Positions 5,863 through 58,692 of a stretch of DNA of 64,000 bases are shown in pieces. Source of the stretch: Candidatus Omnitrophota bacterium. Its GTDB lineage: Bacteria; Omnitrophota; Gorgyraeia; 2-01-FULL-45-10. The notes beneath the pieces are model-generated. The model searched no databases. It was not told where the DNA came from and worked only from the letters and a program-made list of their open reading frames with translations. Numbering within the stretch: position 1 is the first letter of the stretch; each line of letters begins with the position of its first letter. The stretch is from positions 11,711 through 75,710 of the forward strand of contig JAQVUX010000002.1 of NCBI GenBank assembly GCA_028699255.1. Direction: 5' to 3'. A program made the position numbers and the translations under genes.

Positions 5863-5977
5863 AGGTAAAAATAAATTTAAAAGGAGGTTACCAAAAAGGT
5901 CCATTTTTTACTTGTAGCAGTGTAGTTTAAGATATTATGGCGCATTGATGCGTTGGTAGCAATATAGGTGGGGCACA

Positions 5978-34332: not shown

Positions 34333-34342
34333 TCGCGTAGTG

Positions 34343-34505
34343 TAGGAGATAACCGTAGGAGATAACCGCGTAGGTTATTTGAGTTAAATGACTGGCCAAC
34401 CTACGCGGTTGGCGTGTAGCAGATAACCGCGTAGGTTATCTGAGTTAAATGACTGGCCAACCTACGCGGTTGACAGAGTAATTGGCCAACCTGTGCGGTT
34501 GGCGG
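34343..34505 (+). repeat. Tandem 60-nt repeat (about 2.5 copies) carrying a 13-bp inverted repeat AACCGCGTAGGTT...AACCTACGCGGTT around a TGGCCA core
   Basis: Units are 34362-34411 and 34422-34472, with a partial third unit to ~34505. A single copy recurs at 58634-58692. Confidence 0.8.
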
Positions 34506-42850: not shown

Positions 42851-43296
42851 TGAAGTATATTTTAACTGTGCTATTGGCGTCCATCTTTCTAAGCGGCTGT
42901 GCGTCGTCGCTGAAAGAGGTTTCGAAAAAGCAGTTCTCGCCGGTAGAGATATTGCGTGCCGCCATAGGTAATTCGACATTGAGCGTAGAGGAGGCCCGCA
43001 AGACCGCGCTTGTAAAAGTATTCAAATATGATTATCAGGCATGCTACGCGAAGGTAGAGGGTATCCTGAAAACCATGCCGAACATTTCGATATATTATCA
43101 GGACGAGGGAATGATAGCGGTATTTTATTTAAATCCTAATACTACACCGGTAGGTATGTTCTTTACAAAAATCGACGATGGTAATACAAAAGTCGAGATA
43201 TCGTCGCCAGCTTCACCGGCCAAGGAGTGGGTTGCAAAAAACGTGTTTTCCGAGACGGCACTGCCAGCGGAAATTATCAAAAAACCCAGATATTGA
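42847..43296 (+). CDS. Lipoprotein of unknown function
   Basis: Lipobox LSGC after an N-terminal hydrophobic segment. No recognisable domain. Confidence 0.5.
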   Translation: MMKYILTVLLASIFLSGCASSLKEVSKKQFSPVEILRAAIGNSTLSVEEARKTALVKVFKYDYQACYAKVEGILKTMPNISIYYQDEGMIAVFYLNPNTTPVGMFFTKIDDGNTKVEISSPASPAKEWVAKNVFSETALPAEIIKKPRY

Positions 43297-43330
43297 TCCC
43301 TGTTGATGTAAATGAAGCTATATATAAATT

Positions 43331-43407
43331 GCGCCCGTAGCTCAACTGGATAGAGTGAGTGGCTTCGAACCACTAGGTCGCAGGTTCGACTCCTGCCGGG
43401 CGCGCCA
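43331..43407 (+). tRNA. tRNA-Arg (anticodon TCG), CCA encoded
   Basis: Cloverleaf folded by hand. Acceptor GCGCCCG/CGGGCGC, D-stem GCTC/GAGT, anticodon stem AGTGG/CCACT with loop CTTCGAA, T-arm GCAGG-TTCGACT-CCTGC. Confidence 0.85.
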
Positions 43408-43528
43408 GTTTTCGCCACTGTAAGACTATGGCGAAAACGCCCCGAAGCATATATGAAAATTATCAAAGATAATTTTCATATGTTTACGCAAGGGGCGGAA
43501 TATAAAATTTTACAAAAGAATTTTTCTA

Positions 43529-43613
43529 GCGGACGTGGTGGAACTGGCAGACACGTACGGCTTAGGACCGTATGCCGCAAGGCTTGAGAGTTCAACTCTC
43601 TCCGTCCGCACCA
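43529..43613 (+). tRNA. tRNA-Leu (anticodon TAG), class II with long variable arm, CCA encoded
   Basis: Acceptor GCGGACG/CGTCCGC, anticodon stem TACGG/CCGTA with loop CTTAGGA, variable arm GCCGCAAGGC, T-arm GAGAG-TTCAACT-CTCTC. Confidence 0.85.
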
Positions 43614-43889
43614 CAAGCCCCGATTTTCCTAAGGAGTCTTTCAAAAAATCCTCGGGAAATTGGATGGCAAAATTTTCAGGTACTTTAGTGTAAATTCATC
43701 TTTACACGTTTAACAAAATTAAGTATAATGAGCCTTTATTCGTAGAAATTTTAAAGAAGATTTTCTGAGCGTATTTTTCGTATTTTGATATATTTGTCCT
43801 ATAGCTCTCCTTCAAATTTTAAATTTTCGGAGAAAATTTAAAATTTATTGATTCGCTATAGGACTGGAAATTTCAAGAGAAATTTCCAA

Positions 43890-43964
43890 GCGGCGGTAAT
43901 TCAGTGGTAGAATGCGACCTTGCCAAGGTCGATGTCGTGGGTTCGAACCCCATCCGCCGCTCCA
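43890..43964 (+). tRNA. tRNA-Gly (anticodon GCC), CCA encoded
   Basis: Acceptor GCGGCGG/CCGCCGC, D-arm ATTC-AGTGGTA-GAAT, anticodon stem CGACC/GGTCG with loop TTGCCAA, T-arm GTGGG-TTCGAAC-CCCAT. Confidence 0.85.
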
Positions 43965-43970
43965 TATTCT

Positions 43971-44106
43971 GAAAACTTTTCGAAGAAAGTTTTCAGGTCC
44001 TGGAGTTTCAGATACTTCGATTTTGCTCCGCAAAATCGAAGGAGTGAGCAAAACTTTTCGAAGAAAGTTTTCAGGTCCTGGAGTTTCAGATACTTCGATT
44101 TTGCTC
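43971..44106 (+). repeat. Two tandem copies of a 78-nt structured repeat, upstream of tRNA-Lys
   Basis: Unit: GAAAACTTTTCGAAGAAAGTTTTCAGGTCCTGGAGTTTCAGATACTTCGATTTTGCTCCGCAAAATCGAAGGAGTGAGC. It contains hairpin A (GAAAACTTT/AAAGTTTTC) and hairpin B (CGATTTTG/CAAAATCG). Confidence 0.8.
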
Positions 44107-44211
44107 TGAAAAATCCTGGCCCGCATAGCTCATCCTCCTGCGCTACGACAGTAAGATTGGATGAAGCTTCGGCGAGATTTCGCCGACAGGGCTAAAGAGT
44201 AAGATTATAGC

Positions 44212-44287
44212 GCCCGCATAGCTCAATTGGCAGAGCAGGACACTCTTAATGTCAAGGTTCCAAGTTCGATTCTTGGTGCGGGCACCA
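44212..44287 (+). tRNA. tRNA-Lys (anticodon CTT), CCA encoded
   Basis: Acceptor GCCCGCA/TGCGGGC, D-arm GCTC-AATTGGCA-GAGC, anticodon loop CTCTTAA, T-arm CCAAG-TTCGATT-CTTGG. The 27-43 pair is a G-A mismatch. Confidence 0.8.
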
Positions 44288-44381
44288 CGCTCCTAAAATT
44301 TCCAATAGGAAATTTTAGGGTCCTGGGGTTTGACAAGTCCAGATTTTGTTTGGAAATTTCCGAACAAAATCTGGGTACTCC

Positions 44382-44517
44382 GAAAACTTTTCGAAGAAAG
44401 TTTTCGGGTCCTGGAGTTTCAGATACTTCGATTTTCCTCCGGAAAATCGAAGGAGTGAGCAAAACTTTTCGAAGAAAGTTTTCGGGTCCTGGAGTTTCAG
44501 ATACTTCGATTTTCCCT
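44382..44517 (+). repeat. Two further tandem copies of the same 78-nt repeat, downstream of tRNA-Lys
   Basis: Same unit as 43971-44106. Hairpin B changes from GC...GC to CC...GG, a compensatory double change, and AGGTCC changes to GGGTCC. Confidence 0.8.
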
Positions 44518-44627
44518 GAAATTTTCAGAGAAAAATTTTAAGGAGATGAGGGAATAAGCAGGGTTTTGATTTTGGAATTTTCAAGAGGAAATTTCTAAGA
44601 CGCTAGTACTAAAAGGAGACGTGCTTT

Positions 44628-45092
44628 ATGAAGATCATGGATTTCTTAAGCAAAAAAGCGATAACCGCCAATCTCAAGTCCTCCGATAAAGAGGGTGTGA
44701 TACGGGAGTTGGTCGATCTTCTCGCCGCGGCCGAAGATATAAAGAATAAAGAAGAACTTATTAAAGCGCTCCTGACGAGGGAATCATTGGGCTCAACGGG
44801 GATAGGTCAAGGAATAGGCATACCTCACGCGAAATCGGTTAACGCTAAAGGTCTCGTGGCCGCATTCGGGTTGTCGCAGAAAGGCGTGAATTTCGATTCG
44901 CTGGACGGAGACCCGGTGTATATATTCTTCCTTCTAATAGCGCCCGAAGAATCGGCGGGGCCCCACCTTAAAGCACTTGCGCGCATTTCCCGCATGTTGA
45001 AAGATAAATTTTTTAGAGAGCTGCTTAAAAAAGCCGGCGACGAAAAAGAGATTCTTCGTATAATTCAGGAAGAAGATTCGAAGAAATACTAA
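44628..45092 (+). CDS. ptsN: PTS EIIA-Ntr (nitrogen regulatory IIA, fructose-type)
   Basis: PTS_EIIA_2 block with the active-site His (GIGIPHAKS) and a conserved LLTRE region. Confidence 0.8.
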   Translation: MKIMDFLSKKAITANLKSSDKEGVIRELVDLLAAAEDIKNKEELIKALLTRESLGSTGIGQGIGIPHAKSVNAKGLVAAFGLSQKGVNFDSLDGDPVYIFFLLIAPEESAGPHLKALARISRMLKDKFFRELLKKAGDEKEILRIIQEEDSKKY

Positions 45093-57981: not shown

Positions 57982-58647
57982 ATGAAAAAGGATGCGGTAG
58001 ATAATTTTATTGTCTTCTTCGACTTCGATAATACTATCACTACCATCGACGTTATAGATGACATACTCGAGCGGTTTTCAGATAACGACGGCTGGAAGGC
58101 CCTCGAACGGAAATGGCAGAACGAAGAGATAGGCTCCCGTGAATGCCTTAAGGGGCAGATCGAAGGCGTGAGGGTATCCAGGGATAAGCTGGATGATTAT
58201 TTGTCCACCGTAAAGATAGACCCGTATTTTAAAAAACTGCTTAATCTACTCGAATCCCGCAAGATACCGTTCCTGATAGTGAGTGATAATTTCGATTATA
58301 TGCTTAACGGTATACTTAAGAAGAACGGTATATCCGGAGTGGAGACTTATTGTAATAAAGTCGATTTTCGGGACGAGTGGTTTGTGCCGAGTTTCCCGCA
58401 TTCGAACGCGAAGTGCGGCGATTGCGCCAATTGCAAAAAGACGCACATATTAGCGAAGAGACGCCAGGGCACAAAAGCCATCTATGTAGGTGATGGGCGA
58501 TCCGATGTATGCGCGTCAAAGATTTCCGATGTGGTGTTCGCAAAGGGTTATCTGAGGAAGCTTTTTAAGGAAGAAGGGTTGCCTCACGTAGCGATCGATA
58601 GTTTGAAAGATGTCTATGAATATTTTGCAGGAGAAATAACCGCGTAG
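57982..58647 (+). CDS. HAD-IB family phosphatase (MtnX-like 2-hydroxy-3-keto-5-methylthiopentenyl-1-phosphate phosphatase fold)
   Basis: FFDFDNTIT (motif I), VSDNF (motif II), VGDGRSD (motif IV). Its stop codon lies inside the 58634-58692 palindromic repeat. Confidence 0.65.
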   Translation: MKKDAVDNFIVFFDFDNTITTIDVIDDILERFSDNDGWKALERKWQNEEIGSRECLKGQIEGVRVSRDKLDDYLSTVKIDPYFKKLLNLLESRKIPFLIVSDNFDYMLNGILKKNGISGVETYCNKVDFRDEWFVPSFPHSNAKCGDCANCKKTHILAKRRQGTKAIYVGDGRSDVCASKISDVVFAKGYLRKLFKEEGLPHVAIDSLKDVYEYFAGEITA

Positions 58648-58692
58648 GTTATTTGGGTAAAATAATTGGCCAGCCCACGCGGTTGGTATAGG
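58634..58692 (+). repeat. Single copy of the AACCGCGTAGGTT-palindrome repeat unit (same family as 34343-34505)
   Basis: AAATAACCGCGTAGGTTATTTGGGTAAAATAATTGGCCAGCCCACGCGGTTGG. The arm has one G-U wobble and one mismatch. Sits between the HAD gene stop and the RBS of the aminotransferase gene. Confidence 0.7.

Follow-up and report, generated by a model that had tools for sequence, protein, structure and literature searches.

What kind of sequence fills the spacers of a bacterial tRNA operon with hairpins, and is its pairing maintained at the level of DNA or of RNA? The question is raised by a 64,000-nucleotide stretch of Candidatus Omnitrophota DNA (contig JAQVUX010000002.1 of assembly GCA_028699255.1), hereafter the window, which with 10 kb beyond it makes up the 74 kb of source genome sequence examined. 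Its region 43298-44627 is non-coding and carries four plus-strand tRNA genes. The spacers of this polycistronic operon (Arg-Leu-Gly-Lys), which precedes ptsN, a CofD-like gene, ptsH and ptsI, are built from one double-hairpin palindromic family whose pairing has been kept through two-sided changes and of which one subfamily has been amplified locally in this lineage. Kindred modules, here termed T1, stand at the same tRNA ends in relatives and have covarying stems and non-neutral unpaired motifs. The general plan of an element comprises an AT-rich hairpin A with its outer end at the tRNA end, a linker G(G/A)TCCTG..., a hairpin B and a terminal ...GAAGGAG.

Repeat units in the tRNA spacers

The most conspicuous copies lie in two direct repeats of 138 nt each (43965-44102 and 44376-44513), which the repeat search found to be 96% identical. 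They open block 1 (43965-44121, plus strand), consisting of unit U1 (43968-44047) and truncated unit U2 (44048-44121), and block 2 (44376-44532, plus strand), consisting of unit U4 (44379-44458) and truncated unit U5 (44459-44532). R2, a covariance model built from the window-type unit, scores U1 and U2 at 103 and 61 bits and also matches block 2. Tandem Repeats Finder gives a period of 78 and 1.8 copies over 43972-44115, and the approximately 1.7 copies of block 2 were detected only in families D2, D4 and D6 of the repeat search. The preliminary description of this DNA, which was made from the sequence without database searches, had reported two blocks of two tandem 78-nt units with two hairpins each; blocks, period and hairpins were all recovered, but each block holds only about 1.7-1.8 copies. 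The unit reads hairpin A (GAAAACTTT-tcgaag-AAAGTTTTC), linker GGTCCTGGAGTTT, hairpin B (CTTCGATTTTGC-tcc-GCAAAATCGAAG) and GAGTGAGC, with GAAGGAG coming after hairpin B. Units U1 and U3 (the latter described below) begin 3-5 nt past the CCA, and all five occurrences of the linker GGTCCTGGRGTTT in the window are within this region.

The two blocks differ at six positions in 138 nt, with one more just beyond, and four of the six form two compensatory pairs. In hairpin A, T-A at 43970/43995 of block 1 is C-G at 44381/44406 of block 2, and in hairpin B, G-C at 44025/44031 is C-G at 44436/44442. The double substitution in hairpin B had been noticed before and is real, whereas the second pair had been missed; the probability that six random substitutions in the block would yield two or more such pairs is 6.5e-5. 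The second unit of each block has the block-specific bases of the first even at unpaired sites, indicating that the tandem copies evolve in concert. Across nine unit copies, 97% of cells are paired and both sides have changed in 15 of 23 pairs, in a small alignment fitted to the model; these counts, like those for T1 below, come from model-fitted alignments and make no use of a phylogeny.

Further copies extend the family over the remaining spacers. An older, diverged unit, U3 (44291-44377, plus strand; alignments and an R2 score of 64 bits), directly follows tRNA-Lys and is composed of hairpin A CCTAAAATTTCC/GGAAATTTTAGG, linker GGTCCTGGGGTTT and hairpin B CCAGATTTTGTT/AACAAAATCTGG; its nearest counterpart is the tRNA-Lys trailer of a related locus, L058. 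The leader of tRNA-Gly (43796-43889) is read as an inverted copy of the unit architecture because R2 matches its minus strand at 43815-43889 (38 bits, E 6e-7). This leader comprises a long imperfect palindrome (43796-43864) with a conserved ATTGATTCGCT, and a 10-bp hairpin (43865-43888) ending 1 nt before tRNA-Gly, and the same inverted module is present in four related loci (L023, L024, L045 and L068). A resemblance of ATTGATTCGCT (reverse complement AATCAAT) to an integration host factor site was discarded, being a partial consensus match by eye. By orientation, the window thus has five direct copies and one inverted copy. The trailer of tRNA-Leu (43618-43700, plus strand) was recognized in the repeat search as holding a decayed copy, in which 43621-43635 resembles a hairpin-B arm and 43669-43689 is 81% like the 3' arm of hairpin A plus linker.

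Other hairpins accompany these copies. The tRNA-Arg trailer (43408-43496, plus strand) forms two, one of 10 bp at 43408-43438 that starts from the first base past CCA, and a 14-bp inner palindrome at 43451-43481 enclosed by the outer stem GCCCC/GGGGC. Between block 2 and the ribosome-binding site of ptsN, the repeat search revealed two leader-type AT-rich hairpins with AGAG loops (44515-44543 and 44573-44599, within 44515-44599, plus strand). The leader of tRNA-Lys holds a 79-nt insert (44133-44211, plus strand), which contains CTTCGGCGAGATTTCGC and ends in ATAGC. The module, aligned by eye, recurs in relatives, where its distance upstream of tRNA-Lys is 45 nt in L044 and L045 but 164 nt in L065.

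In the 1017 nt of spacer there are 13 perfect hairpins of at least 8 bp, compared with 0.45 +/- 0.68 in dinucleotide shuffles (maximum 3) and with 0.42 per kb in the rest of the window. Among the perfect stems are 43408-43438 (10 bp), 43451-43481 (14 bp), 43865-43888, 44292-44319 and 44339-44374, and every additional palindrome listed earlier was found as such, the longer one after tRNA-Arg having 14 bp instead of 13. The unit itself is confined to the tRNA cluster within the window and the 10 kb beyond it, according to scans that included R2. Elsewhere in the window, a 61-nt tandem repeat (1.9 copies, 34342-34500) is built on the palindrome GATAACCGCGTAGGTTATC, and a similar AAATAACC-gcgta-GGTTATTT stands 24 kb off at 58634-58654; these two palindromes may be operator sites.

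The concentration of AT-rich dyads in the tRNA region could likewise be taken for a set of operators, with GGAAATTTCC and GAAAAYTTTTC as binding sites of a protein controlling the tRNA operon, ptsN or both. All four sites in the window that match GGAAATTTCC with at most one mismatch lie here, similar hairpins immediately precede tRNA-Gly and the ribosome-binding site of ptsN, and pure Watson-Crick symmetry would suit recognition at the DNA level. Nevertheless, the four sites compare with 4.5 expected in the whole window, a count that is not in excess of chance. In addition, the arms vary freely while their pairing stays, although an operator would conserve sequence, and most sites lie downstream of the best promoter match (43701-43729, see below), inside the transcribed region. 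Control by such a protein is therefore considered highly unlikely.

Several familiar classes of element were tried and rejected. The units are no intrinsic terminators, a role suggested earlier, since a T-run is missing after every spacer hairpin, whereas the window's terminators at 5977, 14491 and 54158 have one. They share with terminators and tRNA trailer hairpins a stem-loop right after the encoded CCA, but have AT-rich stems and no U-tract. A CRISPR array is excluded, as had been stated before, by head-to-tail units without spacers at a period of 78 and 1.8 copies per block. A miniature inverted-repeat transposable element does not fit either, because the unit ends (…TATTCTG / GAGTGAGC) are not mutual inverted repeats and no direct repeats flank them. 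A coding repeat (78 nt equals 26 codons) was dropped because the open reading frames (ORFs) of the blocks overlap tRNA genes and have no Pfam match; the 56-aa translation of the unit has no homologue among 5.8 billion proteins. Searches of phages and plasmids matched only the tRNA-Gly gene, speaking against a mobile element of either kind.

Kindred modules at tRNA ends in relatives

A protein-anchored metagenome scan yielded 80 homologous loci with PtsN identities of 65-91%. In nearly all of them the same tRNA cluster precedes ptsN, and in many of them a 64-nt double-hairpin module, T1, with a length range of 58-84 nt, directly follows a tRNA. T1 consists of an AT-rich hairpin A, GATCCTGA, a 6-bp variable stem, the loop GACGAATAGGAG and GAAGGACCT. 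R1, the covariance model of T1, retrieved 30 copies (E < 2e-4) from about 20 loci. In their alignment 96% of cells are paired and 16 of 19 pairs have changed on both sides; none of 500 shuffles reached these values, and slid controls pair at 28-52%. The unpaired motifs retain a mean identity of 72% (85-95% among canonical members), compared with 42% at fourfold-degenerate ptsN sites, which are saturated. T1 is thus not drifting neutrally, its sequence being either constrained or recently spread. No copy was found in viral contigs.

The placement of T1 is precise. In fourteen of its 21 plus-strand copies the first base is exactly A76, the final A of the CCA, of a complete tRNA, which may be Gly, Lys, Arg or Leu, and each of the others either comes after an orphan tRNA 3' end or is at the start of a contig. 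The remaining nine copies are inverted, their loop and linker motifs staying on the strand of the element: three adjoin the 5' end of a tRNA, four stop 13-25 nt short of the ptsN start codon, one (L059) lies 102 nt upstream of that codon and one stands before tatA. Plus/minus doublets occur in six loci (twice in L069, and in L064, L059, L047, L022 and L065), but their variable stems are not complementary. Tandem arrays are formed by T1 in L059 and by other modules in L038 and L071, where the repeated unit includes the tRNA-Gly 3' end. Few cells depart from Watson-Crick pairing; read in transcript sense, they include 11 G-U and 9 A-C, small counts that reveal no RNA-strand-specific signature.

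The window units resemble T1 in position and architecture on inspection, with an AT-rich hairpin by the tRNA CCA, then a linker reading G(G/A)TCCTG, another hairpin and GAAGGA. Their best match to R1 in the window is not significant (14.9 bits, E 0.67, minus strand), and since kinship is proposed only from shared position, architecture and these two short motifs, the units are regarded as a sister variant and not as members of T1. Among relatives, the exact unit was found only in L058, as one copy after tRNA-Lys, and in a strain from another sample, L099 (PtsN 99% identical), which also has tandem units. Between L099 and the window, coding DNA is 97.5% identical over 3.4 kb and the repeat region 84%, and hairpin B differs by a 22-nt palindromic insertion of the kind expected from template switching, indicating that the region evolves fast and by insertions and deletions. 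A pattern scan with one genome per species gave 16 single matches to the unit in unrelated taxa, which is at the chance level given a rough estimate of 9.

It is likely that the units are transcribed, because the stretch from the tRNAs to ptsN yielded no terminator-like site, the only one in 43100-44800 being on the minus strand inside ptsN. The tRNAs and ptsN are therefore probably co-transcribed, judging from sequence. A sigma-70-like promoter match, TTTACA-17-TATAAT (43701-43729, plus strand), agrees with the consensus at 11 of 12 positions and lies between tRNA-Leu and tRNA-Gly; as a consensus match only, it suggests that the Gly-Lys half, and perhaps ptsN too, would have its own promoter. 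Leaderless transcription, with AGAAAT-like sequences 6-7 nt before the tRNAs as -10 boxes, was considered and dropped, because promoters in relatives are ordinary TTGACA/TATAAT with leaders of 15-25 nt and because of the match at 43701-43729.

If transcribed, the elements could be cis-acting structures of the pre-tRNA. As such they would guide or time cleavage by RNase P, by a 3' cut of the RNase Z or RNase E type or by RNase III, insulate the folding of the tRNAs, or form a 5' stem-loop protecting ptsN mRNA after removal of the tRNAs. This is the main rival to the explanation favoured below, possible although doubtful. The start of T1 hairpin A at A76 behind four different tRNAs agrees with it, as do leader hairpins that end 1-3 nt before tRNA 5' ends. 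In the minimum-free-energy fold, the linker CTGGAG of the unit pairs with CTCCA at the tRNA-Gly 3' end, and the folds are much more stable than those of shuffled sequences (z-scores -5.1 and -6.2). Strong stem covariation and conserved unpaired motifs would also be expected of such a signal. On the other hand, nine of the 30 T1 copies and one window unit run against the direction of transcription with their motifs kept on the element strand, G-U pairs are not in excess, and many relatives have no module after the same tRNAs. A long leader-trailer or plus/minus-copy duplex serving as an RNase III stalk was also rejected, since relatives with the inverted leader module have unrelated trailers and the two halves of doublets differ in their stems. 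Moreover, in the 3' maturation of E. coli tRNAs, stable hairpins by the CCA hinder, and do not help, exonucleolytic trimming.

Release of stable small RNAs from the spacers, such as sponge or regulatory RNAs resembling the 3' external transcribed spacer of E. coli leuZ, appears scarcely probable. The units probably are transcribed and fold stably, and functional tRNA spacer fragments were reportedly described by Lalaouna and colleagues in 2015. Yet Rfam (15), applied to the window and 20 related loci, recognized only tRNA at gathering score and, at E <= 5, just spurious miRNA and snoRNA hairpins. The unit is limited to one species-level lineage and L058, its sequence changes fast between strains, and no conserved single-stranded seed region is apparent.

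The spacers of relatives hold further modules. A module ...CTGCG...TGGTCGCAGYGAG... lies 23-24 nt before a tRNA in L026, L041-L043, L045, L049, L051, L058 and L069, and L063 has one copy 112 nt before tRNA-Arg; because it is found at a fixed distance before Gly, Lys, Leu or Arg, one leader is common to different tRNAs. A module of about 120 nt (CTAAACGATTTGGCCTTCGGCCCAAAAAG ... GGCGGGCTAGCGCCCAAATCGTTT) directly follows tRNA-Lys in L019, L032, L041, L043, L049, L051, L069 and L093 and is missing from the window; it comprises several nested stems, without an Rfam match at gathering score in the seven loci scanned (all but L093), and is a candidate structured RNA. Just before the ribosome-binding site, approximately 25 nt upstream of ptsN, GCTTGGCATAAT is kept in L019, L023, L043, L063 and L067 and is absent from the window, while the window shares ACGCTAG(T/C)AC(T/C)AAAAGGAGAC before ptsN with L021.

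Orphan tRNA ends and rearrangement of the cluster

The hypervariability of the spacers, in which the distance from tRNA-Gly to ptsN ranges from 26 to 798 nt, is accompanied by rearrangement of the tRNA genes themselves. The usual order is Arg-Leu-Lys-Gly, and across loci L019-L098 it is permuted between clades (Arg-Leu-Lys-Gly, Arg-Lys-Leu-Gly, Lys-Leu-Gly and Arg-Leu-Gly-Lys), with the swapped Gly-Lys order in the window and L052 and Lys-Leu in other clades. In some clades Lys-TTT replaces Lys-CTT. At least 12 loci have no module after tRNA-Gly, which there lies at most 56 nt from ptsN, so the modules are considered dispensable.

The four CCA-encoding tRNAs reported earlier were all found by both ARAGORN and Rfam on the plus strand: Arg (TCG) at 43331-43407 (RF00005, 68 bits), Leu (TAG) at 43529-43613, Gly (GCC) at 43890-43964 and Lys (CTT) at 44212-44287. 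Downstream, Pfam identifies a ptsN-like gene for a phosphotransferase system (PTS) EIIA protein (44628-45092, plus strand), the first in the series ptsN / CofD-like / HPr / EI, and the flanking genes encode a histidine kinase, a response regulator and PTS components. The PtsN protein is 100% identical to a protein of a Candidatus Omnitrophica metagenome-assembled genome (MAG). Searches for other tRNA loci of the source genome gave no new ones.

Could the duplicated block and the Gly/Lys order be products of mis-joined repeats in the MAG? Short-read contigs of the same or a sister population (L001, L002, L099 and L102) stop at the edges of, or inside, the tRNA/repeat region, a practical sign of repeat-induced assembly breaks, and the 138-nt blocks are near assembler k-mer sizes. 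As these contigs break there, and no independent assembly of the cluster interior was found when sought, its internal order and copy number are taken from the MAG contig alone. However, the blocks differ at six to seven positions in a structured, pairing-preserving manner, the junction from U5 to ptsN is reproduced exactly by L001 and L002, tandem units recur in L099 from another sample, and the Gly-Lys order occurs independently in L052. An assembly artefact is accordingly barely credible.

Fragments of tRNA genes are scattered through the spacers. The first 14 nt of tRNA-Lys recur as an orphan (GCCCGCATAGCTCA; 44119-44132, plus strand), found by the repeat search, 93 nt upstream of the real 5' end. 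Orphan copies of 12-14 nt are seen in nine loci (the window, L019, L028, L044, L045, L047, L065, L067 and L071), 69-147 nt upstream of the gene, and L045 has a second, more distant one 241 nt upstream. Where the tRNA has changed in a particular lineage, the orphan has changed with it: in L045 both copies have G7 and the tRNA itself has C66, and in L071 the sequence reads GCCCCC. Gene conversion, recurrent insertion or function could be the cause. Orphan tRNA 3' ends in relatives number 13 for Gly, four for Lys, one for Arg and two for Leu. Inserts of 60-170 nt after a tRNA, closed by a second copy of its last 14-21 nt (from T-loop to CCA), were observed in L021, L024, L028, L032, L047, L053, L056, L060 and others, and many of them contain a T1-like motif GACGAATAGGAGGAAAAGGCC. 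Genes have also entered these spacers, encoding LAGLIDADG and GIY-YIG endonucleases, a 23S rRNA intervening-sequence (IVS) protein and other small ORFs, in L064 and L081 (Arg-Leu), L057 (Gly-ptsN, with the 23S-IVS-protein gene), L062, L052 and L028. Other cargo includes a DUF3800 fragment, a nitroreductase and a weak MazE/AbrB-like match below the Pfam cut-off.

The orphan fragments and inserted genes lend support to the idea of an integration hotspot, which the preliminary description had raised. Carried further, the units and orphans would be the remains of small mobile cassettes, borne by homing endonucleases or integrases and aimed at tRNA ends, and the permuted tRNA order would fit as well. 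As an explanation of the units this is improbable, given that they are not flanked by tRNA fragments or target duplications, that the window's cluster has no integrase or endonuclease gene, and that the conserved linker and loop motifs are left unexplained. Besides, a tandem duplication ending inside a tRNA gene, as in L038 and L071, would also leave orphans.

Integrons may be compared here. Their attC sites likewise keep structure while the stems vary, have short conserved boxes and come one to a cassette (here a tRNA), and the permuted cassette order and the unrelated small ORFs inserted in relatives are further likenesses. Unlike them, the elements have no R'/R'' core sites (GTTRRRY) and lie between conserved housekeeping genes. 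An attC identity was rejected because neither the unit nor T1 has R''/R' boxes (RYYYAAC ... GTTRRRY) and the neighbours are the histidine kinase, response regulator and PTS genes; where the contigs of the loci reach far enough, roughly 5 kb, they showed no intI, attI or Pc.

A proposed REP-like DNA repeat in the spacers

The explanation preferred here, tentatively and at somewhat less than even confidence, is that the elements are DNA-level palindromic repeats, similar to repetitive extragenic palindromic (REP) sequences and their composites, the bacterial interspersed mosaic elements (BIMEs) or REPINs, residing in spacers that are transcribed and then discarded. It fits the occurrence of both orientations with element-strand motifs, the lack of a G-U excess, the dispensable modules, the tandem arrays and the palindromic strain indels. 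Extra sequence in such spacers would be harmless, since it is transcribed with the tRNAs and then cut away at maturation. Local amplification has left an old copy after tRNA-Lys, an inverted one before tRNA-Gly and a decayed one after tRNA-Leu, and a young 138-nt block of 1.8 tandem units has come to stand twice, after tRNA-Gly and before ptsN. On this view, the same rearrangements swapped the usual Lys-Gly order. Slippage, unequal recombination, inversion and hairpin-templated copying would let the elements persist and multiply; some protein possibly recognises the conserved linker and loop, and at the RNA level the elements would form local hairpins only, which may slow exonucleases.

The preliminary description had taken pairing-preserving substitution as an argument for selection on RNA or DNA structure. 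Maintenance of the stems is borne out by the two compensatory pairs, the 15 of 23 pairs changed on both sides and the covariation of T1, but the step to selection on RNA is insecure, because about 95% of pairs are Watson-Crick without G-U excess, both orientations occur and a strain insertion is palindromic. Sources other than RNA are also documented: REPIN hairpins often show compensatory changes (PMC3116915), and hairpins can arise and be kept up through template switching (PMC8794818).

As in REP, BIME and REPIN families, the elements are short imperfect palindromes in transcribed extragenic DNA, occurring in both orientations, in inverted doublets (here with variable stems that are not complementary) and in clusters, with hairpins kept by compensatory changes (PMC3116915) and dispensable at any given site. 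Unlike these, they are seen only inside one tRNA operon, form a double hairpin with a conserved linker and have an outer end that meets the tRNA ends to the nucleotide. REP and REPIN palindromes have a conserved GTAG or CGTC tetranucleotide at their 5' end (PMC3733652), a tag that is absent here, where units begin (CTG/CCG)AAAAC and T1 begins CCAAATTT. The transposase RAYT (an IS200/IS605-like Y1 enzyme) was not identified among the genes around the cluster, although no search aimed at RAYT or transposases was made.

Several observations weigh against a REP-like nature. True REP and REPIN families are dispersed, whereas neither unit nor T1 occurs outside the tRNA cluster in the 64 kb of the window or in 362 kb of relatives' flanks, the sole exception being the copy by tatA beside the L058 cluster. 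Besides the missing tag, no terminal inverted repeats or target-site duplication were seen. The start of 14 of 21 plus-strand T1 copies exactly at A76, after four different tRNAs, has the precision expected of a processing signal. The window units fail the T1 covariance model, and the G-U and A-C counts are small. Neither leading explanation covers everything: the lack of dispersed copies counts against a REP-like element, and the conserved inverted copies count against a plain RNA signal.

Two other systems invite comparison. At E. coli tyrT, 178-bp tandem repeats lie downstream and carry the tRNA 3' end. There, as here, tandem repeats directly follow a tRNA and are co-transcribed with it, and the unit of L038 and L071 also includes the tRNA-Gly 3' end; the 78-nt units of the window differ in having no tRNA segment and two hairpins, and kindred modules are common to four tRNAs and many species. 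Intervening sequences of rRNA and RNase III stalks are also extra hairpins in a stable-RNA operon that are removed after transcription, and L057 has its 23S-IVS-protein gene in the equivalent spacer. Here, however, neither a long leader-trailer duplex nor one between plus and minus copies is conserved.

A further reading, rather unlikely but of wider consequence, is that T1 and the window-type modules are recognition sites of a novel sequence- and structure-specific factor acting at tRNA gene ends on DNA or RNA. Conserved motifs at saturated divergence, exact A76 junctions, both orientations, co-varying orphans and permuted order fit such a factor, whereas neutral drift does not. In its possible DNA form it would be a recombination system, attC- or REPIN-like and dedicated to the tRNA operon, by which 'tRNA cassettes' are duplicated, inverted and shuffled and small foreign genes let in; in its possible RNA form it would be a dedicated pre-tRNA end-processing motif of this Omnitrophota clade. 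In both forms the element would belong to a new class.

The feature itself is real and statistically strong, and its association with tRNA ends is unusual. The preliminary description of it was correct, and its list of possible roles partly so. The feature also cautions that double substitutions which preserve pairing, and even strong covariation, do not necessarily point to a functional RNA. The R1 and R2 models can be used to scan complete Omnitrophota genomes and metatranscriptomes. Should a dedicated factor exist, the modules would define a new pre-tRNA processing signal or a new site-specific rearrangement system on tRNA genes, with a bearing on the evolution of tRNA gene order and copy number. 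If instead the REP-like explanation is correct, the region would be a clear case of palindromic repeat DNA that has settled in a stable-RNA operon and remodelled its spacers, in an uncultured phylum with small genomes.

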